A stretch of 64,000 nt of DNA from a virus (lineage: Duplodnaviria; Heunggongvirae; Uroviricota; Caudoviricetes). Made by a program: the position numbers and the translations under genes. Numbering within the stretch: position 1 is the first letter of the stretch; every line of letters starts with the position of its first letter. The DNA lies in IMG/VR virus record IMGVR_UViG_3300024298_000005; one strand, written 5' to 3'. Positions 35,159 to 54,157 of this stretch are shown here, one piece after another. A model generated the notes under the pieces. The model made no database searches, had not been told where the DNA came from, and was given only the letters and a program-made list of their open reading frames with translations.

Positions 35159-35509
35159 TTAAACCCAGCTGCGACTATGACTTCTAGATAATTCTGGGTA
35201 TTTGATTTCAAAGAACACACGATTACGATCAGGCACAAAAAAGTCTATGTCGCCCCCAGGTTGTATACTGAGAAAGCCACCCCACGCTTGTACATCACGC
35301 CAAATCTGTTCAGGATCTAACCCATGTCGAAAGTGATGATATCTATAACAATGATCTGTGATCTGAATCGCCATCCTGTACTTATCCAAAATGGCCGAGC
35401 ATAATTCTATAAGCCGCGAAGCGGCAGCGGTAGCGCCATAAATATCAAATGAGGAAATTGCTGTTAATTTTAACTCTAGGCCTAGAGGCATGCTCACAGC
35501 TTTGCCCAC
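35159..35509 (-). CDS. hypothetical protein
   Basis: 116-aa ORF. Confidence 0.45.
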   Translation of the reverse strand: MGKAVSMPLGLELKLTAISSFDIYGATAAASRLIELCSAILDKYRMAIQITDHCYRYHHFRHGLDPEQIWRDVQAWGGFLSIQPGGDIDFFVPDRNRVFFEIKYPELSRSHSRSWV

Positions 35510-35561
35510 AGGGCCTTACAGAAGATCCACATAGAGTGTGTGTGCAGATAAGGATACAGGT

Positions 35562-35819
35562 ATGAAACAACAGGTTTGGTATCTGGTGCATAAAGACACC
35601 CAAAGACGCTTAAAGTACTACAGGTCTCTTGCGGGTGCTCGTATAGCACAAAGAGCACGTAATCATAGACTGGGCTTTATTGAGCGTGTAGAGCGTGTAG
35701 AGATATGGGATAACTGGGAAGTGGAAAGGTGCAAAAATAAAGCGGGTCTTATCTTAGAAGCAACTTGGTGTATAGTAGAAGACACCGTGGACATTGAGGA
35801 TTTATATGCAGAAGAATGA
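35562..35819 (+). CDS. hypothetical protein
   Basis: ORF track 35538, start moved to Met after AAGGA. Confidence 0.4.
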   Translation: MKQQVWYLVHKDTQRRLKYYRSLAGARIAQRARNHRLGFIERVERVEIWDNWEVERCKNKAGLILEATWCIVEDTVDIEDLYAEE

Positions 35820-35935
35820 TACGAAACTACAAGCATTACTAGCAAGTATAGTCTTAGTCTTGGTCTACTGGCTGTTTTGGATCATAACACATTAAATACT
35901 TGTATAACAACAAACAACTACGCAGGAGCGTGTAT

Positions 35936-36139
35936 ATGCGTAATCCAGAAGAAATTTCTAAATGGGTAAGAACAGAACTGGCTAGAGTAAATCCCTATAC
36001 AGATAAACTTAGAGCACATCTTTGGGCAGTGGGTTTTCTAAGTTCAATTATAGCTAGTCTAATATGGGCAGACTCTAAGAACTTGACGAGTTTTAGACTG
36101 GCTGTGGCTGCTAAACTCAAAGAACAAGATAGACTATGA
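35936..36139 (+). CDS. hypothetical protein with C-terminal TM helix
   Basis: AGGAGCG RBS 7 nt before ATG 35936. Confidence 0.4.
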   Translation: MRNPEEISKWVRTELARVNPYTDKLRAHLWAVGFLSSIIASLIWADSKNLTSFRLAVAAKLKEQDRL

Positions 36140-36370
36140 CCTATAATGGCCCCGCTGTAGAATCAACGTGTACATATATGTAGTATAGGCCTAAAGGCCG
36201 AGGGAACTATATATACATTCTTACTGAAGGATAAGAATCAAAGATTCTTACTGAGCTGTAGACGTTGATTTTACTGGGGTTTTGCAGCTGGGTCAGTAAG
36301 TAGCAAAAAGTGTGATTTACTGAGCCTAGACTCGCGTACAGGCCCCGCTGCGTAGGGTGTGCGCAAGGAA

Positions 36371-36410
36371 AAAGTGCAGAAAAGTGTGATAAAGTGTGAA
36401 ATTGTGTGGT
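36371..36410. repeat. four tandem 10-bp repeats AAAGTG(T/C)(G/A)(A/G)N
   Basis: aaagtgcaga aaagtgtgat aaagtgtgaa attgtgtggt read directly. Confidence 0.6.
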
Positions 36411-36514
36411 ATTTGAACTATGCCTCATAACCAATTCACCACGGTAGAGTCTACACTAAAAGATTCTAGCCTAGACTCTGCTCAAACGATTCAGAATCCA
36501 CCATTTCTCAGGGA

Positions 36515-36538
36515 GAATCCACCGTGAATCCACCGTGA
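36515..36538. repeat. tandem 12-mer GAATCCACCGTG x2 (third copy GAATCCACC at 36494)
   Basis: read directly; resembles DnaA-box-like TTATCCACA. Confidence 0.6.
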
Positions 36539-36598
36539 ACTAGTGCTCTTAAACCAGTCTACGGTAGGCGCAAAGTGGCCCCGCTGCTGTAGATTGTG

Positions 36599-36628
36599 GT
36601 TGACATACTCACGTAATGACTATATAAT
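36599..36628 (+). promoter_or_regulatory. sigma70 promoter TTGACA-N18-TATAAT
   Basis: -10 ends 7 nt before ATG 36636 (possibly leaderless). Confidence 0.5.
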
Positions 36629-36635
36629 ATCGCAT

Positions 36636-36890
36636 ATGACACAAAGAGAAGTATTTGAATATAACAATGAAGAAGAAGCCGAAATGGCTCAGATTCATAG
36701 TCTACACATTAATCAGAACGCTATAGATTCTGTACAAGCAGAGTTGGCTCGTCAAAGATCACAGCCTAGTCTAGAGGAATGTGAAGACTGCGGTGAAGCT
36801 ATTCCACAGGCTAGACAGCAAATGGTCCCAGGTTGTACACGCTGCGTATACTGCCAAGGCTTATTTGAGCGTCGTAGAGCTGGATACTAA
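36636..36890 (+). CDS. DksA/TraR-family C4 zinc-finger protein
   Basis: CEDCGEAIPQAR-x-CTRCVYC (CxxC-N17-CxxC) at C-terminus, size 85 aa. Confidence 0.6.
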   Translation: MTQREVFEYNNEEEAEMAQIHSLHINQNAIDSVQAELARQRSQPSLEECEDCGEAIPQARQQMVPGCTRCVYCQGLFERRRAGY

Positions 36891-36920
36891 TAGGCCCCGC
36901 TGCTATACACACGTACATGT

Positions 36921-37259
36921 ATGCAAAAGAAAAGACTATTATCTAAAAGCAGAGACTCTATGACCCTACCTGATGAACGTTATCGCGCTGTAGAGCAAAC
37001 ACAGCGTTTTCTAGAATCACTATTAGATTCTGCACAAACTCCCAGAGTACCCAAAAAGATCCGAGATTCAGCAAGAAGTCTGCTGCGCCACTATCCCTCA
37101 CGTTGGGATCTAGATCGTGCAGCAGCAGCTAGTCCTGATGTTTTTATACGTAGACTTGATCCCTTGTACAAGATGGTCAAGACTCATGACATGCAGCAGC
37201 GTATGGCCGAGGATGTGGAAGAAGATCTACGTGAAGCTAAGAATAGAGGTGAACTATGA
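36921..37259 (+). CDS. hypothetical protein
   Basis: 112-aa ORF, start uncertain (alternative ATG 36960). Confidence 0.4.
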   Translation: MQKKRLLSKSRDSMTLPDERYRAVEQTQRFLESLLDSAQTPRVPKKIRDSARSLLRHYPSRWDLDRAAAASPDVFIRRLDPLYKMVKTHDMQQRMAEDVEEDLREAKNRGEL

Positions 37260-37432
37260 CTAGGATAAAGATTGTTCAACCGGTGGAAGCGGACGGGGAA
37301 GTGGCTATGACTCCAGAAGAACTAGCACTAGCACAGGCTCGTCAACGTGCTGCGCTGGTGCCTAAATACGGGGAACCTGGCTGGAATCCTGATGCTCGCG
37401 ACCCCGACACTGACACCTTACCCAATCAATAA
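37256..37432 (+). CDS. small hypothetical protein (58 aa)
   Basis: ATGA overlap with previous stop; hand translated. Confidence 0.35.
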   Translation: MTRIKIVQPVEADGEVAMTPEELALAQARQRAALVPKYGEPGWNPDARDPDTDTLPNQ

Positions 37433-37438
37433 TTAATT

Positions 37439-37515
37439 CACGCATTAGCTCAGTTGGATAGAGCAACAGCCTTCTAAGCTGTGGGTCAGGGGTTCGAATC
37501 CCTTATGCGTGGCCA
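37439..37515 (+). tRNA. tRNA-Arg (anticodon UCU), CCA encoded
   Basis: cloverleaf folded by hand: acceptor CACGCAT/ATGCGTG, D GCTC/GAGC, anticodon loop CUUCUAA, T-loop TTCGAAT. Confidence 0.8.
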
Positions 37516-37519
37516 GTTA

Positions 37520-37597
<78 letters not shown>

Positions 37598-37604
37598 CTT
37601 GAGA

Positions 37605-37640
37605 AACCCTATAGTCAACTCAGCTATAGGGTTTTTTCTT
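37605..37640 (+). terminator. rho-independent terminator after tRNAs
   Basis: AACCCTATAG-loop-CTATAGGGTT followed by TTTTTTCTT. Confidence 0.7.
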
Positions 37641-37667
37641 GTCCAAACGGCTGTGATCGTGTACAAT
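37639..37667 (+). promoter_or_regulatory. sigma70-like promoter TTGTCC-N17-TACAAT
   Basis: weaker -35; precedes 42-aa ORF. Confidence 0.35.
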
Positions 37668-37689
37668 ATGCATTTAAACAAGGACAGCA

Positions 37690-37818
37690 ATGACAGCACT
37701 ACAGCAAAAGTTCTACGCTGCGTTAGCCTCGCTACAGCAGCACACAAATTTAGATGACGAAGAACAGCAAGACGCAATTGCTGCACTCGCGCAGCTAATC
37801 GAGGATCACGTCAAATAA
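37690..37818 (+). CDS. small hypothetical protein (42 aa)
   Basis: hand translated MTALQQKFYAALASLQQH...; followed by CCCTAG-GCCCT-CTAGGG hairpin. Confidence 0.3.
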   Translation: MTALQQKFYAALASLQQHTNLDDEEQQDAIAALAQLIEDHVK

Positions 37819-37852
37819 CCCTAGGCCCTCTAGGGTCTTAGACAAAATTGGT

Positions 37853-37880
37853 TGACATTTTGGCGCAGAGATCGTACAAT
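37853..37880 (+). promoter_or_regulatory. sigma70 promoter TTGACA-N16-TACAAT
   Basis: read directly. Confidence 0.5.
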
Positions 37881-37904
37881 ATACATATGTTGAAGGAGCG
37901 GCGA

Positions 37905-38225
37905 ATGCGAGCAAAGAGATCAGATCGTAATCACATCATCTATGAACTACGTGTTAACGGTGAGAACTACATTGGTGTCACAGCCAAGACTGAATCAACT
38001 ATTAATAAGAGTGTTCGCGCTCGTGCTGCCAAGCACTTCTATCGTGCCAAAACAGAAACTAAGAATTGGCTGCTTTGCTCAGCTCTACGCAAGCTCAACA
38101 GCAAAGAAGAAATTGAAATCATTGTTCACGAGATTGTTCGTGGCAAAGCCCTGGCCCATAAGCGCGAAGTAGAAATCCGCAGACTGGTAGGCCCTACACT
38201 AAACACAGACACACGAGGAGACTAA
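37905..38225 (+). CDS. GIY-YIG domain protein
   Basis: IIYELRVNGENYIGVT (GIY...YIG) motif; AAGGAGCG RBS before ATG 37905. Confidence 0.55.
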   Translation: MRAKRSDRNHIIYELRVNGENYIGVTAKTESTINKSVRARAAKHFYRAKTETKNWLLCSALRKLNSKEEIEIIVHEIVRGKALAHKREVEIRRLVGPTLNTDTRGD

Positions 38226-38226
38226 C

Positions 38227-38481
38227 ATGGACTTGACCGTAGAAATGTATCGTATAGATCGTCGCTGCAAAGCGGGCCGAGTACTAGTAATGAAGCAGGA
38301 CTACACAGACGTGAGCTGGGCCCAAATGGAGCGCATGTACCCACGTCGTCCACGCTACATCGTAGAGTTTCACGAGACTTGGGTTACAAAGACTAACCTT
38401 ATGACGGGCTTGCCCTATCAGGAACGTTACGATACCCCACATTGCTGTTCAGCAGCCAGCGAGACCTACTGGAGCATGTAG
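38227..38481 (+). CDS. hypothetical protein
   Basis: 84-aa ORF after GGAGA RBS. Confidence 0.45.
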   Translation: MDLTVEMYRIDRRCKAGRVLVMKQDYTDVSWAQMERMYPRRPRYIVEFHETWVTKTNLMTGLPYQERYDTPHCCSAASETYWSM

Positions 38482-38484
38482 GGG

Positions 38485-38513
38485 TTGACAACTAGGAATT
38501 TTGGCAGTATAAT
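38485..38513 (+). promoter_or_regulatory. sigma70 promoter GGTTGACAA-N17-TATAATAc
   Basis: consensus hexamers. Confidence 0.55.
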
Positions 38514-38541
38514 ACAGGCTTACAACGTTAAGGAGCGACCT

Positions 38542-38718
38542 ATGACTAACCCAATCCCTTCTAGCAACATTTGGCACACACCCGCAGATCTCAACGAGCT
38601 GCAGGATATGATCAATCAGTTCACAGGCCAGGAAGCTGCGCTGGCTGCACACGTGATGATGTTGACCCTGAACACCTGCCACAAATTAGTCGATGAAGCT
38701 ATCAAGGAGGCCGCATGA
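38542..38718 (+). CDS. hypothetical protein
   Basis: AAGGAGCGACCT ATG; ORF track start 38485 rejected in favour of RBS-supported ATG. Confidence 0.45.
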   Translation: MTNPIPSSNIWHTPADLNELQDMINQFTGQEAALAAHVMMLTLNTCHKLVDEAIKEAA

Positions 38719-39080
38719 GGTACTGGGACGAACTGCTGCGCGAGCAGCGTAATGGTCTAACCGTGATCGTGGACAAGACCTGGGAAGACTGCTCTATTCG
38801 CGATCTCTTTGATGAAAGCTGCTGTGATGTAGAGGACCTGGAACGTAAGGTTAACAGGGGCGATTTGGATTGGTTTATGCTCAGAGCTCGCGTCATGTAC
38901 AATGATCTGGAACTGGGCTCAGAGATCTGTGGAGGGTTCCTCTACGAAGATGCTCGCGATGTGCTGCGTGATGGTATGGCTGACGAGATGATCTGGCAAG
39001 CAGAGGAAGAAGCCAAACGACAATTACCCGGCCTTATTGAAGGGTTATTGCGTGTAGAGGTTGACAAATTGGCTGCGTGA
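38715..39080 (+). CDS. hypothetical acidic protein
   Basis: AAGGAGG RBS; ATGA overlap. Confidence 0.5.
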   Translation: MRYWDELLREQRNGLTVIVDKTWEDCSIRDLFDESCCDVEDLERKVNRGDLDWFMLRARVMYNDLELGSEICGGFLYEDARDVLRDGMADEMIWQAEEEAKRQLPGLIEGLLRVEVDKLAA

Positions 39081-39116
39081 GCATACAATAGAGACTTAGC
39101 AACAAAGGAGCGCGAT

Positions 39117-39455
39117 ATGCAGACACTTTTTAGCACAGCAGGCGACGGCTTGTGGAGCAACGTAGCAAAGCCTGTACACATTGTAGACATGCAACTTGCC
39201 TACATTAACGACGAGAGAGATTTTGGCGAGCTGCGTGTTTACTTTAACACTAAGTTTTGGGACGTTAACAAAGACGGTCTCATTTACACAGACAGCAACT
39301 TTATTGAAGAACTGCGCAATTTTTTAATTGCACAAGAACTAACTGACGACTGCGACTACAGCGAGCAAGGCATGCAGGGAGACAACTACGTTAGCTTAGA
39401 CGTGGGAGAGGGCTTTATTGCTGCGTGGGATGCAAAGTTTAACTTGTTTGCATAA
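39117..39455 (+). CDS. hypothetical protein
   Basis: AAAGGAGCG RBS. Confidence 0.5.
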   Translation: MQTLFSTAGDGLWSNVAKPVHIVDMQLAYINDERDFGELRVYFNTKFWDVNKDGLIYTDSNFIEELRNFLIAQELTDDCDYSEQGMQGDNYVSLDVGEGFIAAWDAKFNLFA

Positions 39456-39461
39456 GCACAA

Positions 39462-39498
39462 AACGGGGGTTGACAACAGCCCCCGTTTATAGTACAAT
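39462..39498 (+). promoter_or_regulatory. stem-loop (AACGGGGG/CCCCCGTT) enclosing -35 of promoter TTGACA(39470)-N17-TACAAT(39493)
   Basis: 8-bp inverted repeat flanks TTGACAACAG; read directly. Confidence 0.5.
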
Positions 39499-39527
39499 AG
39501 ACACACATTAACACAAAGGAGCGTGAA

Positions 39528-39950
39528 ATGGCTACTCGAAGCACTATTGCAATGGAGCAACCCGACGGTCGCGTAATGCAGATCTACTGCCACTGGGACG
39601 GTTACCTTGATCACAACGGAGAGATCCTTCAGGAGCACTATCGTGATCGCGCTAAGGTTTTGGCACTCATGTATCTGGGCGATATCAGCTCCTTAGCTCC
39701 TAGCATCGGAGAACCGCACGATTGGGACAACTGCCCTGAGGGTGTCTGCAACGCCTACGGACGCGATCGTGGCGAATCGGGCTGTGAAGCTCGTGTGTTC
39801 AAGGACTTTGAGGACTACAAGGCCAACCACCAGTACGAAGAATACGAGTATATCTTCCGTTCGGACGATCAGTGGTATGTTTCCGAATACAGCCGAGCCT
39901 ACCGCGCACTTGAGCAGGTGCTGGCAGAAGCAGAAACCCTAGAGGATTAA
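39528..39950 (+). CDS. hypothetical protein
   Basis: AAAGGAGCG RBS; 140 aa. Confidence 0.5.
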   Translation: MATRSTIAMEQPDGRVMQIYCHWDGYLDHNGEILQEHYRDRAKVLALMYLGDISSLAPSIGEPHDWDNCPEGVCNAYGRDRGESGCEARVFKDFEDYKANHQYEEYEYIFRSDDQWYVSEYSRAYRALEQVLAEAETLED

Positions 39951-39969
39951 GGGTTATTACTGAATGGGG

Positions 39970-39998
39970 TTGACAACAGCCTCATTTGGTAATATAAT
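39970..39998 (+). promoter_or_regulatory. sigma70 promoter GGTTGACAACAGCC-N-TATAAT (imperfect hairpin around -35)
   Basis: TTGACA 39970, TATAAT 39993, spacer 17. Confidence 0.55.
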
Positions 39999-40031
39999 AG
40001 AGGTATGTTCAACAAATGCATAGGAGCGAAA

Positions 40032-41105
40032 ATGCCAGCAGTAATTGAGATTCGTGAGGGTTCGTATAAGATCCGTGGCTCAGATGTGAGCATGGCCGGT
40101 AACCGTTTCGAACTAGTAGAGCAATACAAAGAAGGTGCTCAGGGTGGTTATGTAACCGTAGAAGGTGGCTCTGTACAGCCTGCTAACCCTGGCATTCCAG
40201 ATCGTAAGATCCGTATTCGTTGCAGTTCAGCACAAAGTTACATGATTGTCGCCGGTGAAGTGCCAGCAATGCCCGCAGGTGATAAAAGTTTGGAGCAGAT
40301 TAAAATTTCAGATAATGCCGTAGCACACGAAACGGACGAGCAGATCATCGAACGTCTTCGTAACCGTTTTGACGTGCTCAAAGATATGACCAAAGCAGTC
40401 AAAGAAGGTACCGTGCGAGCTATGATCGTCACAGGCCCTCCAGGCGTGGGCAAGAGCTTTGGTGTAGAAGAAGTACTAAGCAAGGACGATCTCTTTGATA
40501 TGATGGGTCAGCGCAAGCCCAAATATGAGATTGTCAAAGGCGCAATGTCAGCAGTGGGTCTGTACAGCAAGCTCTATCACTACAGCGAAAAAGGCAATGT
40601 TATCGTGTTTGATGACTGCGACTCTGTGCTGTTGGATGACCTTAGCCTTAATATTTTGAAGGCTGCTCTGGACTCTAGCAAGAAGCGTACTATCTCTTGG
40701 AACACTGACAGCCGTGTTCTGCGTTCAGAAGGAGTGCCAGATCGCTTTGAATTTAAAGCAGGCGCTATCTTTATCACTAACATCAAGTTTGAGAATGTGC
40801 GTTCTAAGAAACTGCAGGATCACCTTGCCGCTCTTGAAAGCCGTTGCCACTACATTGATCTTCAAATGGACACAGATCGCGAAAAGGTCTTGCGCATTAA
40901 GCAGATCACCCAAGATGGCATGTTGGACAGCTACGAGTTTGAAGACTGCGTTAAGGATGAGATCATTGATTACATTCTTGAAAAACGAGCACAAATGCGT
41001 GAGCTGAGCCTGCGTACGGTACTCAAGGTAGCAGACCTGCGCAAGAGCTTTCCTACAAATTGGAAGAGCATGGCAGAAGTTACCGTTATGAAGCGAGGTG
41101 CCTAA
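40032..41105 (+). CDS. AAA+ ATPase with unique N-terminal domain
   Basis: Walker A GPPGVGKS, Walker B VIVFDDCD; AGGAGCG RBS before ATG 40032. Confidence 0.65.
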   Translation: MPAVIEIREGSYKIRGSDVSMAGNRFELVEQYKEGAQGGYVTVEGGSVQPANPGIPDRKIRIRCSSAQSYMIVAGEVPAMPAGDKSLEQIKISDNAVAHETDEQIIERLRNRFDVLKDMTKAVKEGTVRAMIVTGPPGVGKSFGVEEVLSKDDLFDMMGQRKPKYEIVKGAMSAVGLYSKLYHYSEKGNVIVFDDCDSVLLDDLSLNILKAALDSSKKRTISWNTDSRVLRSEGVPDRFEFKAGAIFITNIKFENVRSKKLQDHLAALESRCHYIDLQMDTDREKVLRIKQITQDGMLDSYEFEDCVKDEIIDYILEKRAQMRELSLRTVLKVADLRKSFPTNWKSMAEVTVMKRGA

Positions 41106-47881: not shown

Positions 47882-47920
47882 GGGCCCTAGTATGCACACG
47901 TATACTAGGGCGTTTTTTTT
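47882..47920 (+). terminator. rho-independent terminator
   Basis: CCCTAGTAT-GCACACGT-ATACTAGGG then TTTTTTTT. Confidence 0.7.
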
Positions 47921-47928
47921 GACTTCGG

Positions 47929-47957
47929 TTGACAACTGGATTAACTGATCATATAAT
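47929..47957 (+). promoter_or_regulatory. sigma70 promoter TTGACA-N17-TATAAT
   Basis: consensus. Confidence 0.55.
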
Positions 47958-47996
47958 AGTATTAACGAATTGGAGCACAGGAGCTTAAATACACAC

Positions 47997-48323: not shown

Positions 48324-48709
48324 TGAGCGACCTTGATGTAACCATGATCATCCTTTACGGCCTTGGCCTACTTTCAGGCTGGTGGGCATCTAAGATCTTT
48401 CATCTGCACCTACTACGCAGCATCCTGAAGGATCTTGGGGTGAGTCAGCAGGATCTACTCGCACTCCTTAACCGATCAGAAGAAGAATCATCCGATGATC
48501 CCGAGCTGGATCAGATCGATATCAAAGTTGAGAAGCATAGTAACACACTCTATGCGTTTCGTAAAGACAACGATCAGTTCCTAGGGCAGGGCAACAGCAA
48601 GGAGCAGCTGATCGAAGCCATGGCGCAGCGTATGAAGAATGTAAGGTTGATCGTGGTTGAGGGCCGTGAATACATGGAGTCCAAAACGGTTGACACGACC
48701 GCGGTTTGA
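48323..48709 (+). CDS. hypothetical protein (N-terminal TM helix)
   Basis: TAATG coupling. Confidence 0.45.
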   Translation: MSDLDVTMIILYGLGLLSGWWASKIFHLHLLRSILKDLGVSQQDLLALLNRSEEESSDDPELDQIDIKVEKHSNTLYAFRKDNDQFLGQGNSKEQLIEAMAQRMKNVRLIVVEGREYMESKTVDTTAV

Positions 48710-48724
48710 GCTTACAATTGAGTT

Positions 48725-49276
48725 ATGAAAATTACAGAACTCCAGAACCTATACCGCGCAGGCCAGATCATCCGCAAGGCAGATCACGCAGACAAGTTGG
48801 ACATCCAATTGGATCCCACAATGACTCGCGAGCTGTTTCGACAAGAAGTTGGCCGTGTTTACTTCATCGTAGTCAACGGTGAAATCAAGAAGATTGGCGG
48901 CTCACAGGCCAAGGGCGGACTCAAGGGAACCTTAGGGGCCTACTTCACTGGTTTTGCCAAGGGCATGAGCGCCAGGACCTATTGCGTATGGAACTTCATG
49001 CGCCAGCAGATCGATCAAGGGCACACGGTTGAGATCTATGTTACATTTGCTCCCCTGGTTGAAGCAACCATTCCAGGTCCCCTGGGACATGTAACCGTAC
49101 ACATTCCTGTAGACTATCATACCATTGAGAAGAGCTACGTGGATCACTTCGTGCTGGTCGAGAGCAAGCATCCTTACTTGAACATGCAGGAAAGTGCGGG
49201 CCGTTGGGAAGATACGGGGCTTTTAGAAGGCTATCACGGGCTTTGGGTTCCACAACAAGAAACCCTAGCAGCCTAA
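48725..49276 (+). CDS. hypothetical protein
   Basis: 183-aa ORF. Confidence 0.5.
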   Translation: MKITELQNLYRAGQIIRKADHADKLDIQLDPTMTRELFRQEVGRVYFIVVNGEIKKIGGSQAKGGLKGTLGAYFTGFAKGMSARTYCVWNFMRQQIDQGHTVEIYVTFAPLVEATIPGPLGHVTVHIPVDYHTIEKSYVDHFVLVESKHPYLNMQESAGRWEDTGLLEGYHGLWVPQQETLAA

Positions 49277-49295
49277 GGGTTATTCAAAAAAGTGG

Positions 49296-49324
49296 TTGAC
49301 AACAGCCTCTAGATCGCATATAAT
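49296..49324 (+). promoter_or_regulatory. sigma70 promoter GGTTGACAACAGCC-N-TATAAT
   Basis: consensus. Confidence 0.55.
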
Positions 49325-49355
49325 ACAAGCTCAACAAACAACTTAGGAGCGAAAC

Positions 49356-49709
49356 ATGGAAGCACAAGCACGTGAGTATTTTGTCCGTCGTCTTAACGAA
49401 GTAGCACAAGAAAAAGTGCAGGCCAAAGCAGTAGAACTTTACGGCGCAAGTGGCCGTCCAGAACAGCCTACTTGGGGCATGGTGTTTGAGGGCATTAAAT
49501 CCGGCGAGATTACCCTTAAAGCAGACAAGGTGGACTATACGGGTCCTTACCTCAACCCTACGGACGTGGAGTGGCCTGCTATGGAAGCCAAAAAGGCAGA
49601 GCTGGAAGCATATCGCAAGTTGGTAGCCGCTGAGAAGCAACGGGCTATGGACGCTGTCTATTTGGACGAGAGCGCACAAGAAGCCCTTAAGGCTTTTGAA
49701 GCAATTTAA
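49356..49709 (+). CDS. hypothetical protein
   Basis: TAGGAGCG RBS. Confidence 0.5.
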   Translation: MEAQAREYFVRRLNEVAQEKVQAKAVELYGASGRPEQPTWGMVFEGIKSGEITLKADKVDYTGPYLNPTDVEWPAMEAKKAELEAYRKLVAAEKQRAMDAVYLDESAQEALKAFEAI

Positions 49710-49716
49710 ACAACAA

Positions 49717-49748
49717 AAGCCCTACACTCCGTAGGGCTTTTTCTTGAC
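49717..49748 (+). terminator. rho-independent terminator
   Basis: AAAGCCCTAC-ACTCC-GTAGGGCTTTTTCTT. Confidence 0.7.
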
Positions 49749-49772
49749 CTTTTGGCACTTTGGACATATAAT
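49744..49772 (+). promoter_or_regulatory. sigma70 promoter TTGACC-N17-TATAAT
   Basis: overlaps terminator T-tract. Confidence 0.5.
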
Positions 49773-49796
49773 ACACTTACACAGAAGGAGAAGTGT

Positions 49797-49979
49797 ATGA
49801 GAGTAGAAGTCAAAAGCCTATACAGAGTTCAATGCACAGAGTATGAAAGAGGCTATGGTCAAAGGGACATGGGTGTGGTGTTCTTTGACACAGAAGAAGA
49901 AGCCAAGCAGTTCTGCCTAGAATACGCCTCGGGTGATAGCGAATGCTACTTCCGAGCAAGCTACGAAAAGATCAACTAA
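49797..49979 (+). CDS. hypothetical protein
   Basis: AAGGAGAAG RBS before ATG 49797. Confidence 0.4.
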   Translation: MRVEVKSLYRVQCTEYERGYGQRDMGVVFFDTEEEAKQFCLEYASGDSECYFRASYEKIN

Positions 49980-49995
49980 TTCTAGAAAGCCTAAA

Positions 49996-50232
49996 ATGAA
50001 AAGCAAAGACACACAGATCTACAAGAACATTGGCTCTATCCAGGCAGTACAGGGTGACGAAGGCCGCTACTACTTCTACACTCACTTTGCTACAGGTAAC
50101 ACCTGCGACGAAGACACTATCAAAGGTGCCAAAGAGATGTTGGATTGGGAAGAAAAGAACCATCAAGAAGTACAGGCTGCGATCCGTGTGCTTCAGGGTC
50201 GAGGTTACAGAGTATTCAAAGAGGTTTGTTAA
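49996..50232 (+). CDS. hypothetical protein
   Basis: 78-aa ORF. Confidence 0.4.
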   Translation: MKSKDTQIYKNIGSIQAVQGDEGRYYFYTHFATGNTCDEDTIKGAKEMLDWEEKNHQEVQAAIRVLQGRGYRVFKEVC

Positions 50233-50471
50233 TGGGATGGGTAGTCTACGATGCTCGTACGGGGCACATGCAAAAGTATTACAAGCTGGCCCGTACAGCC
50301 AAGAGTATCGTCACGCAGCACAACACAGAACGAATCTATGAGGACTGGATCTATCGTCCTCAGAGCACTTGGGCCTGCTGCTCCTATGCAGACTACGAAG
50401 GGATCTTAATGGGTCTGCGTGGGGAAGCGTTTAAGATGTGGCAGTTTGTTAAGAATAACCCGCAGAGCTAA
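50232..50471 (+). CDS. hypothetical protein
   Basis: TAATG coupling. Confidence 0.4.
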   Translation: MGWVVYDARTGHMQKYYKLARTAKSIVTQHNTERIYEDWIYRPQSTWACCSYADYEGILMGLRGEAFKMWQFVKNNPQS

Positions 50472-50488
50472 AGGGTCTTTCTTTTTGG

Positions 50489-50518
50489 TTGACCTTTGGG
50501 CCTTTTGGTGCTATACTA
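50489..50518 (+). promoter_or_regulatory. sigma70 promoter TTGACC-N18-TATACT
   Basis: read directly. Confidence 0.45.
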
Positions 50519-50540
50519 TAGGTATAGTAAGGAGCGTGAA

Positions 50541-50789
50541 ATGATAACAGAAAAACAACGTGTTGTAAATGCCCTAAAGGGTTGGCAGTTCATCCGTGGA
50601 ACCCATGGTTGCTTGTATGATCGTGGCTCAGCAGATTCCTACTACGGCCGTCCACGTCAACCTCACTACGGTGGAGTGGGAGGCGATTCCGGCCGCCGAG
50701 TCTCGGTCAACGATGCTGCATCCGTGGCCGAATACTTGGCAGGCTACGACTACAACGAGCGTTATGGAGACAAAAAGAACTATGATTAA
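50541..50789 (+). CDS. hypothetical protein
   Basis: AAGGAGCG RBS. Confidence 0.4.
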   Translation: MITEKQRVVNALKGWQFIRGTHGCLYDRGSADSYYGRPRQPHYGGVGGDSGRRVSVNDAASVAEYLAGYDYNERYGDKKNYD

Positions 50790-51006
50790 TCATGGCCTAC
50801 AATGGCTGGGCACAGCCGCTCTGATCTCTATGTATATTGTGATGAGCTTCTTTCCTGAGCGATATCCGCTGAATATCCTCTTAGGATTACTGGGAGGTCT
50901 ATGCTATTTTGCGTGGTCGTATCGTGTGGCAAATAAGCCACAGATGATCGTTAACTTCGCAGGAATAGCCGTGTGTGCCGCAGGGTTATTTCGTTATTTT
51001 GATTGA
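50782..51006 (+). CDS. small membrane protein
   Basis: two TM helices; overlaps previous stop. Confidence 0.4.
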   Translation: MINHGLQWLGTAALISMYIVMSFFPERYPLNILLGLLGGLCYFAWSYRVANKPQMIVNFAGIAVCAAGLFRYFD

Positions 51007-51031
51007 CACTCAGGCACTTTGGCTATACAAT
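51004..51031 (+). promoter_or_regulatory. sigma70 promoter TTGACA-N16-TACAAT
   Basis: read directly. Confidence 0.45.
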
Positions 51032-51063
51032 TAACACATACGCTAAACAACTAGGAGCAGAAA

Positions 51064-51246
51064 ATGGTTACACAAGCACAGGCAATGTTTGTATTTGTAG
51101 TAGGACTACTAATCACAATGTTGGGCACAGGTGGTGTAGAAGCCAGCATCTCTAACCTAGAACTTCTACAAGGTCTAGCAGTGGCCATCACTGGCCTAGG
51201 CTGTATGGGCTGTGGTGTGCTCATGCTTAGGCAAGCCGAGGACTAA
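51064..51246 (+). CDS. small membrane protein
   Basis: TAGGAGCAG RBS; two TM helices. Confidence 0.4.
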   Translation: MVTQAQAMFVFVVGLLITMLGTGGVEASISNLELLQGLAVAITGLGCMGCGVLMLRQAED

Positions 51247-51247
51247 T

Positions 51248-51559
51248 ATGGAAGCCCTAGTTGAAACAACTGGGGGCCAGTTCCCCGCGCACACATATCT
51301 ACTAGACGGTACTACCCTAGTAGCCTATGTAAAGGTCAACGAAACTACGCCCGTCTATTTCAAAAGCGGTATCAAGGGCTTTGATAAGCGTGGTAGGCAG
51401 TTCGTTAAGGGTAACATCAACTTATTCAAAGTAAAGGCAACTAATGACACAAGATCTGTCCAAGGCTCAAAAGGCCAAGTCTACTCAGTCAACGACGCAG
51501 AGAAAACCTGTACCTGTCCAGGATTTACATTTAGAGGTACCTGCAAACACTTGGGCTAA
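51248..51559 (+). CDS. SWIM zinc-finger protein
   Basis: C-terminal CTCPGFTFRGTCKH (CxC-x10-CxH). Confidence 0.5.
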   Translation: MEALVETTGGQFPAHTYLLDGTTLVAYVKVNETTPVYFKSGIKGFDKRGRQFVKGNINLFKVKATNDTRSVQGSKGQVYSVNDAEKTCTCPGFTFRGTCKHLG

Positions 51560-51580
51560 CATGATAAAGGTATTGATGCA

Positions 51581-51808
51581 ATGAGCATACAACTACACGG
51601 ACTGACCCGCCAGCAGTATCAGATCGCTGACATGATCTGGAGCTGTGAATCACAAGAGGATGTTCAACGCTTGATCAATAACCTGCCCGCAGAGTATAAG
51701 AAGGACGCTGTGGTCATACACGATCTAATGATAGCAGCAGTCATGGACCAACATATGGAGATCACTGAAGATGTTCGTGCGCTTATTCATAGTATTGCTA
51801 GCCGCTAG
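51581..51808 (+). CDS. hypothetical protein
   Basis: 75-aa ORF. Confidence 0.4.
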   Translation: MSIQLHGLTRQQYQIADMIWSCESQEDVQRLINNLPAEYKKDAVVIHDLMIAAVMDQHMEITEDVRALIHSIASR

Positions 51809-52139
51809 CTTAACAGCCTGCACAGCCTTTAGGGATCCACGTGATGCTGCGTGGGATCCTAGGCAGGATCAAGGTCGTTACCTTCACGAACAGATTCCAA
51901 ATTGGCAGCATGAAGCCCTCAGAGTCTGTGGTGGTGGTGACCGAGTGAGGAGACCTGGTATGACCGATCGGTGTTGATGGTCGGTCGGTGGTCGGTGGTG
52001 AGGGGTAACATATGTTAGTAAGTACTAACAAGCTAGTAAGGGGTAGCAAATCACCACCCTGAAAAGAAAAGTACTGCCCTTAAAAATTTTGCGCGGCCAA
52101 TTTTTTCCCCTGTAGACCCATTTTGCTGTAAATACACTC

Positions 52140-52304
52140 ATGAAAGATCAAATTGAACGTAACGGGCGACTCTATGAGTACTCAGCCACTGACGATTGTT
52201 GGTATCCTGTGCCCACTGAAGACCAGTATGATTTTCAACGTTTTGTTATTTTTATCAGCACAATTCTAGTTATTTGTTATCTAGCCTATGCAACACTCAC
52301 ATAA
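52140..52304 (+). CDS. small hypothetical protein (54 aa)
   Basis: hand translated; weak support. Confidence 0.25.
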   Translation: MKDQIERNGRLYEYSATDDCWYPVPTEDQYDFQRFVIFISTILVICYLAYATLT

Positions 52305-52448
52305 TTATATTGGCCCACATTGGCGTAGTAGTCTGCCATTTTACCCATGGACCATACTTGCTCGTAGGCCCGAATTTGTCGCTGATCCCTTGTTGAATCA
52401 AAAGAGCTCATGGGAGTTCAAGCCCGATCCTGTTATACATCCTAAACT

Positions 52449-52646
52449 ATGATAGAATACGCTGTACTCACACGGGATCCTGATTTTTTGAAGTTTGCGG
52501 AATTTATACAAGCACACAATCTCAGCCACGAAATACATCTTAATCGTACTCGTGTACACCTAGTTGAAAACTCTAGTCTACACCTAGAGTTTTTATTGAG
52601 ATTTCCCAGTGCTTTTCCCATAACCACTTTCACGGAGTCGCTATGA
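52449..52646 (+). CDS. hypothetical protein
   Basis: 65-aa ORF. Confidence 0.3.
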   Translation: MIEYAVLTRDPDFLKFAEFIQAHNLSHEIHLNRTRVHLVENSSLHLEFLLRFPSAFPITTFTESL

Positions 52647-53197
52647 CTGAACCTAGAATAATACCTAATTTATTAGGCCCCAGCACATTTGAATATGCAC
52701 AATCACGTTTTACGGATCTAGGCATACACTGGTACTACATGCCCGTGACCAGCTGTGAAAAAGATCAAATGCAGTATGCAGGCAGCTTTAGTCATTTGAT
52801 CTATAAAAATGGAGAACCCATTAGTCCCTTATGGGATCTTAGTCTACAGATACTCTTAGCTGCCTGTGATCATCACGGTGAACGACTAGCAGAAATTGCT
52901 CGTGTTAGACTGGGCTTTTGTACTCGTACACCCTATGCTGTGGAGCATACACCGCATCAAGATTTTCAAGGACCGCATCGTACGGGCATATATTACCCTA
53001 TTACCGCTGACGGCCCTACTACTATCTACGCAGAGAAAACAGAACAACTTGATGGTGCGTATACTCTGTTGGCTAGTCAACAGCCTAGGGCTAACCTTTG
53101 GATGGACTTTGACGGCGAACATTTTCACAGCAGCACTACTCCCGTAGATCACGAAAATCGCTTGGTTTTGACCCTAAACTACAGAATACAAGAATAA
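52643..53197 (+). CDS. hypothetical protein (possible 2OG-Fe(II) oxygenase-like, HxD...H)
   Basis: HQD ... H spacing only; weak. Confidence 0.4.
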   Translation: MTEPRIIPNLLGPSTFEYAQSRFTDLGIHWYYMPVTSCEKDQMQYAGSFSHLIYKNGEPISPLWDLSLQILLAACDHHGERLAEIARVRLGFCTRTPYAVEHTPHQDFQGPHRTGIYYPITADGPTTIYAEKTEQLDGAYTLLASQQPRANLWMDFDGEHFHSSTTPVDHENRLVLTLNYRIQE

Positions 53198-53214
53198 TGT
53201 CGTAAATACAAGAT

Positions 53215-53439
53215 ATGCTTCTAGTGTATCTTGAACCTTTTGTTCGTGAGCAAGAGGACCTACTACAATCCTGGCGGGATCTAGTACACTATTGGCCTCG
53301 TAGTTATGCGCACACAGATGCTTATAACTCTGCTATACCTACAGATTGGTGGCTCTTGTTTAGGGATGCTCGTTACTCTAGTATATGGTTGATCAAATAC
53401 CCTGAACACTCAAGAATTATGCTGACCTTATTCGACTAA
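53215..53439 (+). CDS. hypothetical protein
   Basis: 74-aa ORF. Confidence 0.35.
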   Translation: MLLVYLEPFVREQEDLLQSWRDLVHYWPRSYAHTDAYNSAIPTDWWLLFRDARYSSIWLIKYPEHSRIMLTLFD

Positions 53440-53522
53440 AAAATCTTGCGCTTGGCGCTTCGCGCTAAAAAATTGCGCTGCGGCTTCGCCGATCTTGATA
53501 AATATTCGAAACAGGAGCAATC

Positions 53523-53729
53523 ATGCCACAGGCCTATAAAATCATGGCACGTAACACTAGAACAGGTGTCAGAATACAAAAACAATTTCTAGATGGAGCC
53601 ACCGTCACAAACTATGATATGGCTCTAGAACACGCTCAAGATCTAGCTCAGCGTCAAAGTTCACGCAGTCGCGAAACTTGGGTGGGCGAAGTAGAAATCT
53701 ACACCGTGGGCAACAAGCCCGGTCAGTGA
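53523..53729 (+). CDS. hypothetical protein
   Basis: AGGAGCAATC ATG. Confidence 0.4.
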   Translation: MPQAYKIMARNTRTGVRIQKQFLDGATVTNYDMALEHAQDLAQRQSSRSRETWVGEVEIYTVGNKPGQ

Positions 53730-54157
53730 TACATATAGTTCACTGAATCTTCATTTTCCCTAAATGTCTCGGCCCCGTTTTTATGATGAAAACGTCGGGC
53801 CATTTCTGTCTTTGGACTTAGAGTAACAAAGGTCTTGACTTCGGGGCTGTTTTCTTTGATGTCTGCCTGTGCTTGTGTGATCAACTCACGACCTGCACCT
53901 GCGGCATAGCTCCAAATGGTATAGAACACAGCAGTGGTAGAGTTTACTGCTAGATTGGCTAGATCATCAACATTCTTAGGAATGTCTGCTAGAAACTTAA
54001 CACAGGTCACAGCCAAAGGACGGTTTTCTTCATCTTTGAGTACATAGACCTTGCCGTGTTCGTCAACTCGAAAGTCCGCAGGAATTTCTGGACGCACAGG
54101 ATCGTCTTTGAGTAGGCTCAATAGTTCTTCGTTGATGGTGGTGATTTTTTCTAGCAT
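53723..54157 (-). CDS. GNAT-like acetyltransferase (tentative)
   Basis: AAGAGRELI resembles GNAT motif A (R/Q-x-x-G-x-G/A). Confidence 0.4.
   Translation of the reverse strand: MLEKITTINEELLSLLKDDPVRPEIPADFRVDEHGKVYVLKDEENRPLAVTCVKFLADIPKNVDDLANLAVNSTTAVFYTIWSYAAGAGRELITQAQADIKENSPEVKTFVTLSPKTEMARRFHHKNGAETFRENEDSVNYMYH

Follow-up and report, generated by a model that had tools for sequence, protein, structure and literature searches.

A GC-rich block of small genes behind repeated sigma70-type promoters in an uncultured large phage

Genes, promoters, and terminators of the block

The window, which is the whole 64,000-nt stretch of DNA analyzed, derives from an uncultured large phage of freshwater type; the nearest isolates of this large myophage are the PA5oct group, at ~51% amino-acid identity. 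By analogy, the block described here would be its variable "early gene" region. In 35.5-53.75 kb, 46 small ORFs were mapped on the + strand, close to the roughly 45 reported in a first-pass annotation, and an independent gene caller (ENA) agreed for 37.7-53.7 kb, where its genes were exclusively on the + strand (Table 1). About 30 of the 46 proteins were without a PHROG or Pfam family, in line with the earlier remark that most had no recognizable family. The first gene behind the first promoter encodes a DksA/TraR-type zinc finger, the sole block protein hinting at a host "takeover"; proteins of this family bind RNA polymerase. The divergent cluster next to the block carries TAAATA-type motifs instead of sigma70 sites.

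When up to two mismatches to TTGACA-N17-TATAAT were allowed, 19-20 sites were found at 36.6-51.1 kb, all on the + strand. Exact TTGACA-N16-18-TATAAT matches numbered 14 in the window compared to 0.12 expected from shuffles (0 of 100 shuffles reached 14); one mismatch gave 17 + strand sites at 36.6-51.1 kb, and the weaker sites at 46066, 47464, 50489, and 41570 brought the count to 19-20 units. GG preceded 16 of these sites, and GGTTGACA occurred 16 times on the + strand and 0 times on the - strand. The observation reported earlier is thus real and partly confirmed, although its details were overstated. At least 17 promoter-led units were indeed recovered, but GGTTGACAA itself was counted 10 times; TACAAT replaces TATAAT in six promoters, and in three the -10 box is weaker. 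The verbatim recurrence of extended forms was reproduced (GGTTGACAACAGCC 3 times and TATAATAC 4 times within the island), whereas the Shine-Dalgarno sites were not identical, with exact AAGGAGCG found just 7 times, AGGAGCG 10 times, and GGAG in 26 of 46 genes. The ATG lies 7 nt past the -10 box at 36600..36628 and 6 nt past it at 48690..48718, so both mRNAs are probably leaderless. The four terminators named earlier are good hairpins with a T-run (-16 to -27 kcal/mol, z -2.3 to -7.5), and a fifth was found at 37601-37640. The stretch rich in promoters reaches only to 51.1 kb, and high GC3 extends to about 52 kb, short of the island end of 53.75 kb claimed before.

Table 1. Coordinates of the block, its neighboring cluster, and their features
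Feature	Position	Strand	Remarks
Divergent cluster adjoining block	31405..35509	-	two 2OG-Fe(II) oxygenases, tail-protein-like ORF, ORFans
Uninterrupted ORF block	35562..53729	+	46 ORFs of 28-402 aa, plus 2 tRNA genes; ORF and SD map
Promoter TTGACA-N17-TATAAT (12/12)	36600..36628	+	drives DksA-like gene, 2 ORFs, tRNAs
DksA/TraR-type C4 zinc-finger protein	36636..36890	+	phrog_54 2e-17; PF01258 2.9e-9
GC3-rich part	37256..51977	+	gene GC3 0.35-0.63, mean about 0.5; backbone 0.19-0.39
tRNA-Arg(TCT) and tRNA with anticodon CAT	37439..37597	+	
Intrinsic terminator	37601..37640	+	past tRNA genes; -18.4 kcal/mol, z -4.1
Promoter GGTTGACA-N17-TACAAT	37852..37880	+	then AAGGAGCG
Promoter GGTTGACAA-N17-TATAATAC	38485..38513	+	then AAGGAGCG
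Promoter (TACAAT)	39061..39089	+	-35 within 3' end of preceding ORF; then AAGGAGCG
Promoter	39470..39498	+	-35 in stem-loop GGGGGTTGACAACAGCCCCC; -18.5 kcal/mol, z -5.1
Syntenic core	39528..45241	+	retained in all near relatives
phrog_1987 protein	in core 39528..45241	+	
Promoter, GGTTGACAACAGCC hairpin type	39970..39998	+	within 59-nt repeat common to 49296 unit
AAA protein	40032-41105	+	syntenic core; two small ORFs follow
Probable promoter TTGACA-N18-TATAAC	41570..41599	+	spacer hairpin; precedes wHTH gene
wHTH protein	41618-41893	+	syntenic core
Intrinsic terminator	41940..41966	+	T7 run; -16.1 kcal/mol
Promoter (12/12 plus TG)	42016..42044	+	position kept upstream of g17 orthologues
214-aa ORF	between wHTH and MoxR-like genes	+	in core listing
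Promoter of MoxR-like ATPase gene	42709..42737	+	extended -10 GGTG at least 90% conserved, 35 relatives
MoxR-like AAA ATPase	42790-43875	+	syntenic core
Intrinsic terminator	43933..43968	+	-27.3 kcal/mol, z -6.3
Promoter (12/12 plus TG)	43979..44007	+	joined to T-run of terminator before it
DUF2201 metallopeptidase and VWA-like protein	44033-45241	+	syntenic core
Promoter (12/12)	45325..45353	+	
Weaker promoter (TTGACA / TAAACT, with TG)	46066..46094	+	
Promoter TTGACC-N17-TATAAT	46304..46332	+	then AAGGAGCG
Weaker promoter (TTGACA / TACATT, with TG)	47464..47492	+	
Intrinsic terminator	47884..47911	+	-21.5 kcal/mol, z -4.8
Promoter (12/12)	47929..47957	+	immediately 3' of terminator 47884-47911
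Promoter (TACAAT)	48690..48718	+	
Promoter (12/12), GGTTGACAACAGCC type	49296..49324	+	
Intrinsic terminator	49715..49741	+	-16.3 kcal/mol, z -7.5
Promoter TTGACC-N17-TATAATAC	49744..49772	+	fused to terminator 49715-49741
Promoter TTGACC / TATACT with TG	50489..50517	+	
Promoter (TACAAT)	51003..51031	+	last in series

Base composition and codon usage

GC content per kb was 0.455-0.50 at 37-52 kb compared to 0.33-0.40 across most other DNA of the window, which bears out the GC-richer stretch. Third codon positions account for most of the difference: GC3 was about 0.51 in the island and 0.28 in the backbone, while GC2 was equal. ATA (0.05 vs. 0.24), AGA (0.09 vs. 0.33), and TTA (0.09 vs. 0.37) were rarer in the island than in the backbone, and GGA was also avoided; ATC (0.58 vs. 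0.16) and AAG (0.61 vs. 0.25) were commoner. C-ending two-fold codons made up 0.54 in the island and 0.32 in the backbone, four-fold GC was 0.39 vs. 0.24, and intergenic GC was 0.43-0.45 vs. 0.34-0.36. The phage tRNA-Arg(TCT), located in the first operon, reads AGA. Codon usage is documented to differ between early and late phage genes (PMC5683454), and the codon pattern is compatible with the "selection for high expression" proposed previously.

The raised intergenic GC and the four-fold shift are explained no less well by a regional compositional force than by codon selection. A regional mutational effect, such as GC-biased gene conversion or repair bias, with the promoter array unrelated to it, is a possible but somewhat unlikely source of the GC richness. 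Its candidate driver would be very high recombination of the plastic region, and the GC domain coincides with the shuffling zone. Island intergenic DNA is ~0.08 GC-richer than backbone, four-fold sites are shifted by 0.15, and the domain is confined neither to one strand nor to one promoter class: the - strand cluster at 31.4-35.5 kb is GC-elevated (GC3 0.32-0.46 here and 0.42-0.61 in relatives) and is part of the GC domain, outside the promoter array. Consensus promoters also head AT-rich genes, namely in the 36636-37432 operon, where a perfect promoter precedes genes of low GC3 (0.29-0.42), and in the 22.3-31.4 kb block; sites of this type in AT-rich DNA were found at 23460, 23578, 26796, 30585, and 55103, indicating that promoter type is separable from GC richness. 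However, the two-fold shift exceeds the four-fold one (C-ending +0.22 and AAG +0.36 vs. +0.15), and the strongest shift, 3- to 5-fold, affects ATA, AGA, TTA, and GGA, codons typically served by phage tRNAs. The GC3-rich state is also gene-sharp in PA5oct, where the orthologous ATPase has a GC3 of 0.67 and its neighbours 0.21-0.22, which is hard to reconcile with a regional effect, and the equally recombinogenic PeSL region of RB49 has no GC elevation (GC3 0.39 vs. 0.39). The GC-rich codons most likely reflect long-term selection for fast translation via the host tRNA pool, with the codons of the AT-rich remainder of the genome supplied by phage tRNAs; regional mutation or gene-conversion bias may contribute to the GC step.

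Conservation and cassette shuffling among relatives

Diverged IMG/VR relatives share the promoter hexamers, the GC step, and the syntenic core, with promoter-bounded gene cassettes shuffled. Across ten related loci (191 kb), 12/12 sites numbered 127 on the + strand and 0 on the - strand. Upstream of orthologous g17, g18, and g19 (24-35 distinct relatives), the hexamers were at least 90% conserved and the spacers variable; the promoter at 43979..44007 was conserved upstream of the DUF2201 gene. Gene order was kept in the core g12-g19 and permuted outside it. Homology among relatives starts at the -35 box and stops at the next promoter, the repeat families D1-D5 being the promoters, and the 50489 cassette was kept entire with its gene regardless of upstream content.

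The comparison also bears on the "separate evolutionary origin" read earlier into the compositional contrast. Foreign DNA not yet ameliorated, either a module acquired from a GC-richer phage or from the host or a region continually refilled with GC-richer genes, could account for the atypical composition, the tRNA genes at the left edge, the predominance of orphan ORFs, and accessory cassettes that vary between relatives, as well as for the scattered single GC-rich genes in PA5oct. We nevertheless consider it unlikely. In many diverged relatives, independent of one another, the GC step had an unchanged location; all of them have the g12-g19 core, and the island ATPase and a backbone helicase were equally distant from PA5oct (51.1% and 51.4%), with relatives ranking alike for both. 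GC3 of 0.51-0.65 was held in eleven lineages although four-fold identity was only 46-64%, so the GC-rich state is an equilibrium rather than a remnant. A search for an integrase or flanking repeats of the island found none. Because the step is clade-wide and has outlasted heavy synonymous divergence, a recent foreign origin is unsupported, and for the core a foreign origin is largely refuted.

It is highly improbable that the GC step arose during assembly, from a chimeric contig joining two phages. The window does derive from a metagenome, and several contigs terminate near 37.45 kb, within the tRNA-Arg gene; but contigs from different samples independently span the left edge (L007, L012, L020, L025, L029) and the right edge (L112/L113, L114, L124, L083/L084, L086, L099, L103).

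Proposed transcription by the host polymerase

The data suggest that the block is likely a hyperplastic region transcribed through host sigma70, probably expressed early and assembled from promoter cassettes. A matrix of 384 distinct sites from related contigs combined the complete consensus -35, 17-bp spacing, and the -10 box with GG at -37/-36, an extended -10 TG at -18/-17, an A at position -6, and CA at the start, AnAnACAT being conserved there. PA5oct, the closest cultured relative, has no RNA polymerase of its own, is rifampicin-sensitive, and relies on host RNA polymerase; 32 TTGAC/TATAATA promoters coincide with the transcript starts mapped for it, and blocks of small + strand ORFs make up the early genes (PMC7318152). 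Of the earlier interpretation, the separate origin is not upheld, whereas a host-polymerase-dependent block is favored by the consensus sites in relatives, the conserved hexamers, the rifampicin data, and the DksA/TraR-type gene; by analogy, it appears built for use by host primary-sigma RNA polymerase.

Alternatively, the motif may not chiefly be a host sigma70 promoter: a phage-encoded factor (an activator, a repressor, or a sigma of the phage itself) could bind it, or expression of the block could fall at middle or late times. The conserved positions beyond the hexamers (GG, TG, and AnAnACAT) would suit such a factor, hairpins within some promoters could serve as protein or attenuator sites, and the PA5oct ATPase orthologue was found in virions. 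This reading seems improbable, as the hexamers, 17-bp spacing, extended -10 TG, and CA start are features of bacterial primary-sigma promoters; structural-side genes are marked by a different, separate short motif (TAAATA 4-6 nt ahead of the ATG); and PA5oct, which is blocked by rifampicin, has the same two motifs (PMC7318152).

Under host sigma70 transcription, RNA polymerase with the primary sigma factor would initiate at ~20 near-consensus promoters, each laid out as GG, TTGACA, a 17-bp spacer with the extended -10 TG, TATAAT, and a CA start rich in A. About 25 nt past each promoter comes a strong GGAG(CG) ribosome site, then 1-4 small ORFs. Intrinsic terminators, five in all and every one joined to the following promoter, would insulate some units, yielding numerous short, independent, strongly expressed transcription units. 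Promoter, leader, and ORF move together as a cassette, gained, lost, or re-ordered at promoter boundaries between related genomes; the breakpoints point to recombination between repeated promoter sequences as the presumed route. This model has been put forward for PeSL cassettes in T4-type phages (PMC2839356, PMC4122927).

A layout of ~20 near-perfect bacterial promoters for ~45 mostly unfamiliar small genes is known from T4-like phages; new here is the phage clade, and the unusual trait is that the codons of the block are GC-richer than the rest of the genome. Single GC-rich genes are scattered in PA5oct. Classical PeSLs have an AT-rich upstream tract, which no promoter here has. Stem-loops were present in some promoters, as in T4-type PeSLs, though in a minority: 43 of 376 folded at -10 kcal/mol or better, compared to 8 with shuffled spacers.

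Promoters, terminators and stem-loops

The repeated sigma70-type promoter described by the first-pass annotation for the GC-rich, plus-strand island at ~35.5-53.75 kb was confirmed: exact TTGACA-N16-18-TATAAT occurred 14 times, compared to 0.12 expected. With one mismatch allowed, 17 plus-strand sites were found between 36.6 and 51.1 kb, and 3-4 weaker sites brought the total to 19-20 units, all of them (≤2 mismatches) on the plus strand. The sequence GGTTGACA was present in 16 copies on this strand and in none on the other. The sites had the TTGACA -35 box, the spacer of 17 ± 1 bp and the TATAAT -10 box of sigma70 promoters. The array is real, strongly non-random and conserved. Its units were less uniform than in the earlier claim of at least 17 units with one promoter pattern and an identical Shine-Dalgarno sequence: GGTTGACAA was found 10 times, TACAAT occurred in six promoters, and AAGGAGCG and AGGAGCG were counted seven and 10 times, respectively.

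A typical unit opened with a short T-run and GG, then had TTGACA, a spacer of 17 bp (with TGGTG at its end in many cases), and TA(T/C)AAT plus A, followed by an A-rich leader of ~25 nt, (A)AGGAGCG and, after 4-5 nt, the ATG. Each unit carried 1-4 ORFs, with frequent overlaps of 1-4 nt. At two promoters the ATG was only 6-7 nt away, which would yield leaderless mRNAs (coordinates in the table). A matrix was built from 384 distinct sites in relatives, and these natural variants provided an unusually clean promoter model: GG at -37/-36 (81-83%), TG at -18/-17, T-15 and G-14 (extended -10), A at -6, and a conserved C-A pair 7 nt past the -10 box. An AT-rich upstream element was absent from this matrix, with information content near zero at -55 to -42; T or A was preferred over the short interval from -41 to -38, and then came GG.

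The four terminators named in the first-pass annotation proved to be stable hairpins with T-runs, and a fifth of the same form was found after the tRNA genes. The five intrinsic terminators ranged from -16 to -27 kcal/mol, and there were five terminator-promoter composites. The distance from a terminator to the next promoter was 30-70 nt, and in two cases the T-run merged directly into the -35 region. Hairpins were also embedded in promoters, four of which are in the window. In the relatives, 43 of 376 promoters folded at ≤ -10 kcal/mol, compared to eight with a shuffled spacer. [quoted passage not shown] In orthologous promoter copies, the stems differed yet stayed complementary through compensatory changes among relatives.

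Three perfect (12/12) sigma70-type sites were located outside the island. In 35 relatives (contigs L003-L043), a block within the 5' leader of the gene for the MoxR-like ATPase, ..T.A.ACTG.GA.., was ≥90% conserved; it is special to this gene, the other leaders being different, and may be a translational operator.

A second motif, TAAATA, was found 4-6 nt before the ATG of many structural-side genes, at 11 sites compared to 4.1 ± 2.1 expected; nine of the 11 were at the start codon of a mapped ORF. It looks like a T4-type late promoter (reminiscent of TATAAATA) close to the ATG, which would make the mRNAs leaderless or nearly so. The window thus seems to have at least two promoter classes, and this supports, by analogy, the sigma70 class as that of the early phase.

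Directly upstream of the first strong promoter, a 496-bp ORF-free stretch was densely filled with short direct repeats and also had inverted repeats, the direct repeats being GAATCCACCGT, AAGTGTGA and TGGCCCCGCTG (three copies each) and AGCCTAGACTC (two copies). An origin, a regulatory region and a non-coding RNA are all possible roles for it. The early region of PA5oct, a Pseudomonas jumbo phage and the closest cultured relative, has highly transcribed ORF-free 'lncRNA' loci. The motif GGCCCCGCTG(C) was found five times, and two of the copies lengthen to a 31-nt repeat, AGGCCCCGCTGCTA..CACGTA.., just past terminator-like hairpins or stop codons. Another repeat, CCGATTCGCTCCCGG, was found twice in the 3' untranslated interval between stop codon and terminator. 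It was conserved in relatives and also occurred in contigs L041 and L009 downstream of homologues of island gene g28. Part of it, TCGCTCC, is perfectly complementary to GGAGCGA, an extended and unusual form of ribosome site that the island uses; in that form, the added CG(A) is unable to pair with the standard 16S rRNA tail.

Coordinates of features in the window
Feature	Coordinates	Strand	Remarks
TAAATA sites	8314-8326, 14114-14127, 14387-14401, 33076-33089, 34281-34293, 35144-35157	-	
TAAATA sites	47986-47999, 52129-52142, 53203-53217	+	
1384-aa ORF	9962-14116	-	odd profile (GC1 0.42, GC2 0.56, GC3 0.30); no PHROG match; probably a low-complexity fibre or structural protein
2OG-Fe(II) oxygenase paralogues	33094-34283	-	tandem pair (phrog_81, phrog_61)
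ORF-free stretch with repeats	36140-36635		
GGCCCCGCTG(C) motif	36147, 36340, 36576, 36892, 45285		
Promoters with ATG 6-7 nt away	36600, 48690	+	
First operon	36636-37432	+	
CAT-anticodon tRNA gene	37520-37597		
Promoters with embedded hairpins	39470, 39970, 42709, 41570		
CCGATTCGCTCCCGG copies	41916-41932, 47854-47870		
Leader of ATPase gene	42738-42789	+	~50 nt
MoxR-like ATPase gene (g18)	42790-43875	+	
Perfect sigma70-type site	54168-54197	-	before 53723-54157
Perfect sigma70-type site	55103-55131	+	
Perfect sigma70-type site	62490-62518	-	before primase gene 61455-62483

Phage lineage, gene content and conservation among relatives

The window forms part of a phage contig from a metagenome. 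ENA contigs with lengths up to 101 kb encoded a protein of the same sequence as the island ATPase, and the index of the assembly collection had this protein in 71 blocks. Relatives of the ATPase were encoded on at least 598 IMG/VR contigs, some of more than 200 kb, which points to an extensive and abundant clade of big, uncultured phages. The closest isolates by protein were the PA5oct group, with 51.1% identity for the ATPase and 51.4% for the DnaB-like helicase; for each of the two proteins, the ranking then continued with Sinorhizobium phage Phosso, Agrobacterium phage Atu_ph07 and Salicola phage SCTP-2. When the island DNA was searched against INPHARED (50,697 phage records), the tRNA genes were the sole match, and the Rfam search matched the two tRNAs and nothing else.

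A total of 46 plus-strand ORFs and two tRNA genes were mapped at 35.5-53.75 kb. Our ORF map and an independent gene caller agreed with the first-pass annotation that all genes are on the plus strand, and its statement that most of the proteins have no recognizable family also held, with ~30 of the 46 matching neither PHROG nor Pfam. In the first operon, the gene for a DksA/TraR-type zinc finger, whose family binds RNA polymerase, was accompanied by two ORFs and by the genes for tRNA-Arg(TCT) and the CAT-anticodon tRNA, and a terminator closed the operon. The recognizable genes past this operon encoded an AAA protein, a winged-helix protein, the MoxR-like AAA ATPase, a DUF2201 metallopeptidase and VWA-like protein, a SWIM zinc finger and two nuclease-like PHROG matches. 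No integrase or transposase family was among the PHROG and Pfam matches of the island proteins, and the repeat search found no direct repeats flanking the island. The PADLOC defence models gave generic P-loop noise only, and a PDB sequence search with core proteins g12 and g17 gave no significant match. A weak full-length alignment of g17 to peptide deformylase was rejected, since the catalytic motifs were absent. The ORF at 52643-53197 was found to be unrelated to the 2OG-Fe(II) oxygenases at 33.1-34.3 kb, of which it had been considered a paralogue; its 'endonuclease V' label comes from a single PHROG with no Pfam match. Several independent contigs (L001, L002, L006) ended ~5.3 kb upstream of the ATPase gene, at window position ~37457, inside or adjoining the tRNA-Arg gene, perhaps because the assembly broke at a repeated tRNA or because a terminal repeat has its boundary there.

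Ten loci from relatives (191 kb) had 127 perfect 12/12 matches to the promoter, every one of them on the strand that carries the genes. Upstream of orthologous g17, g18 and g19 (24-35 distinct sequences), the -35 and -10 boxes were ≥90% conserved, whereas spacers and flanks varied freely, the footprint expected of functional promoters. At the ATPase gene (g18), a weaker TATACT box was paired with an invariant extended -10. The eight-gene core at 39.5-45.2 kb (g12-g19) was syntenic in all relatives, with promoters at matching places, whereas genes outside the core were re-ordered, lost or replaced between relatives. For g29, g32 and g36, similarity started at the -35 box or at a terminator-promoter composite and stopped at the next promoter, whatever followed, so that promoter, leader and ORF seem to behave as a cassette; this comparison covers three genes, in relatives that are 70-78% identical and too distant for locating crossovers. 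A 'far clade' (ATPase identity 70-74%; AT-rich and without the promoters) was considered as a sister group and dropped as an evolutionary comparison, because the ATPase-DUF2201 pair was all that it had in common with the island.

Comparison with PeSL cassettes and with early regions of PA5oct and T4

Promoter-early stem-loop cassettes (PeSLs; Arbiol, Comeau, Krisch), described in hyperplastic regions of the T4-type phages RB49/phi1, T4/PST and KVP40/nt-1, combine a strong sigma70-like promoter with a stem-loop and a ribosome site; they precede orphan ORFs and mediate modular shuffling (PMC2839356, PMC4122927). The window array matches these cassettes and is a known kind of architecture. Both have many strong sigma70-consensus promoters on one strand before small orphan ORFs, each with its own Shine-Dalgarno sequence; composites of terminator and promoter; stem-loops over the -35 box or between -35 and -10, often GGGG...CCCC; and gene gain, loss and re-ordering among relatives, which in the window clade seem to be located at these elements. 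The differences are that the closest isolates of the window phage are PA5oct-like and not Straboviridae, that its promoters have GG and a short T-run instead of an AT-rich tract before the -35 box, and that only ~10-20% of them contain embedded hairpins. The RB49 region has five strict sites in 9 kb compared to ~1.3 per kb here, roughly twice that density, and it shows no GC enrichment (GC3 0.39 vs 0.39), whereas the window block is markedly GC3-richer than the rest. These data extend promoter-cassette genome plasticity past the T4-type phages to a PA5oct-related uncultured clade.

According to the PA5oct report (PMC7318152), this phage (Arenbergviridae) lacks its own RNA polymerase and is sensitive to rifampicin, TTGAC and TATAATA motifs are found at its transcript starts, and long runs of small plus-strand ORFs are expressed early. 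The long plus-strand runs of small ORFs without assigned function are shared with the window. In contrast, the early genes of PA5oct sit in a 39-kb terminal repeat (same source), its consensus sites are far sparser (two in 50 kb by the same scan), and its gene content differs almost entirely. In T4, promoters close to the consensus allow the host sigma70 polymerase to transcribe the early genes in its unmodified form (PMC2988021), and structural genes have a short, separate late motif, TATAAATA in T4 and TAAATA here. With the early class taken from the promoter type and from PA5oct and T4, the block is best read as an early region that is built from cassettes and driven by host polymerase, in a new phage clade related to PA5oct. 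Promoters and terminators of this kind are by themselves ordinary for a virulent phage using host RNA polymerase; the clade-wide GC3-rich dialect is the part that departs from described examples.

The GC step and codon usage

The GC contrast noted in the first-pass annotation was reproduced, with 0.455-0.50 per kb at 37-52 kb compared to 0.33-0.40 over most of the rest and intermediate values at 31-36 kb and 52-55 kb. The step was mostly synonymous: GC3 was 0.35-0.63 in island genes (38.2-52 kb) and 0.19-0.39 in the backbone, GC2 was equal, and GC1 was slightly higher in the island. Four codons were rarer in the island than in the backbone, namely ATA (0.05 vs 0.24), AGA (0.09 vs 0.33), TTA (0.09 vs 0.37) and GGA (0.12 vs 0.31), and three were more frequent, namely ATC (0.58 vs 0.16), CAC (0.72 vs 0.38) and AAG (0.61 vs 0.25); GC at four-fold sites was 0.39 vs 0.24. 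The AGA codon, enriched outside the island, is read by the phage-encoded tRNA-Arg(TCT). The CAT-anticodon tRNA was called 'Met' by ARAGORN, and its acceptor stem has C4-G69 and C5-G68, which we take to be the pairs by which lysidine synthetase recognizes tRNA-Ile2; in that case, its codon would be ATA, which accounts for 24% of the backbone Ile codons and 5% of those in the island.

In other samples, contigs that reach from the replication genes into the island showed GC steps from 0.32-0.40 to 0.46-0.53, with promoters confined to the GC-rich part, so the step is neither peculiar to this genome nor an assembly artefact. The ATPase genes of eleven relatives were 46-64% identical to that of the window at four-fold sites and all had a GC3 of 0.51-0.65, indicating that the step is old. 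The separate evolutionary origin proposed earlier is thus argued against as a recent import, as the step is clade-wide and old and the ATPase and helicase are equally diverged from PA5oct. Instead of the patchy presence and discordant phylogeny of an acquired island, the GC step and the core were found in all near relatives.

PA5oct itself (33% GC; host 66% GC) was surveyed in MK797984.1 at 1-50000 and 222000-252000 (segments L163 and L164). Its orthologous ATPase gene had a GC3 of 0.67 and its DUF2201 gene 0.50, with neighbours at ~0.22, and some of the genes in the terminal repeat that holds its early region were at 0.5-0.77. These GC3-rich genes are scattered singly, whereas the window has one 15-kb domain. 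The sharply bounded genes were gp38 (0.77), gp53-57 (0.53-0.70), gp86-88 (~0.6), gp98 (0.77), gp103-104 (0.66), the ATPase gp335 (0.67) and gp340 (0.50), with neighbours at 0.14-0.36, and gp35 and gp80 were likewise counted as GC3-rich; the searched text of the PA5oct paper (PMC7318152) does not discuss them.

Codon selection could produce such a step if the island genes were translated fast on host tRNAs, ahead of the accumulation of phage tRNAs. The avoidance of rare codons, the larger shift at two-fold sites and the gene-sharp pattern in PA5oct speak for it. Codon usage differences between early and late phage genes are documented, with synonymous usage differing by temporal class and linked to host and phage tRNAs (PMC5683454). 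Compared to these, the window split is far more visible (10 GC points over 15 kb) and spatially contiguous, and it does not strictly match promoter class. A similar codon adaptation has been proposed for the leading regions of conjugative plasmids, a first-expressed set of small accessory or anti-defence genes that is richer in GC and better adapted in its codons than the rest of the element (bioRxiv 10.1101/2025.04.03.647016); those are plasmids rather than phages, their DNA enters single-stranded, and the window island shows no palindrome depletion.

A strict match between codon shift and expression class was not found within the window, and three observations argue against expression class as the sole explanation. 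Promoters of this type are shared by the first operon and the plus block at 22.3-31.4 kb, yet the codons there are AT-rich; the minus-strand cluster at 31.4-35.5 kb lacks these promoters, yet is GC-elevated, more so in relatives; and the intergenic DNA of the island is GC-richer too. For these same reasons, a regional bias linked to recombination stays a serious rival as the cause of the step. The minus-strand cluster includes two 2OG-Fe(II) oxygenases and a tail-like protein. In contig L025 (1252-3641), three tblastn matches to the oxygenase at 33094-33753 and one to the oxygenase at 33672-34283 were found, which suggests that this family is expanding in the cluster.

A tentative and rather doubtful extension of codon selection is that large AT-rich phages of the PA5oct-related lineage keep a selected, host-like 'fast-start' dialect, GC-rich and free of rare codons, with maximal promoters and ribosome sites, while their other genes drift AT-rich and lean on phage tRNAs. 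The gene set concerned may be a whole plastic block of 15-20 kb here and single genes, such as the MoxR-like ATPase, in PA5oct. If this were true, the GC step would mark a division of labour at the level of translation that has long been stable in evolution, and host GC content and immediate-early genes would be predictable from sequence alone. A selected GC3-rich state would likewise serve in uncultured phages as a sequence-only marker of immediate-early or high-expression genes and as a hint at host GC.

Restriction-site avoidance was considered as a cause of the composition and rejected, since there was no island-specific palindrome depletion and GATC was enriched. At 37600-52000, GATC occurred 126 times compared to 81 expected (1.56-fold), or 8.8 per kb vs 4.2 in the backbone, an excess that may be a by-product of the preferred AAG/GAG and ATC codon pairs.
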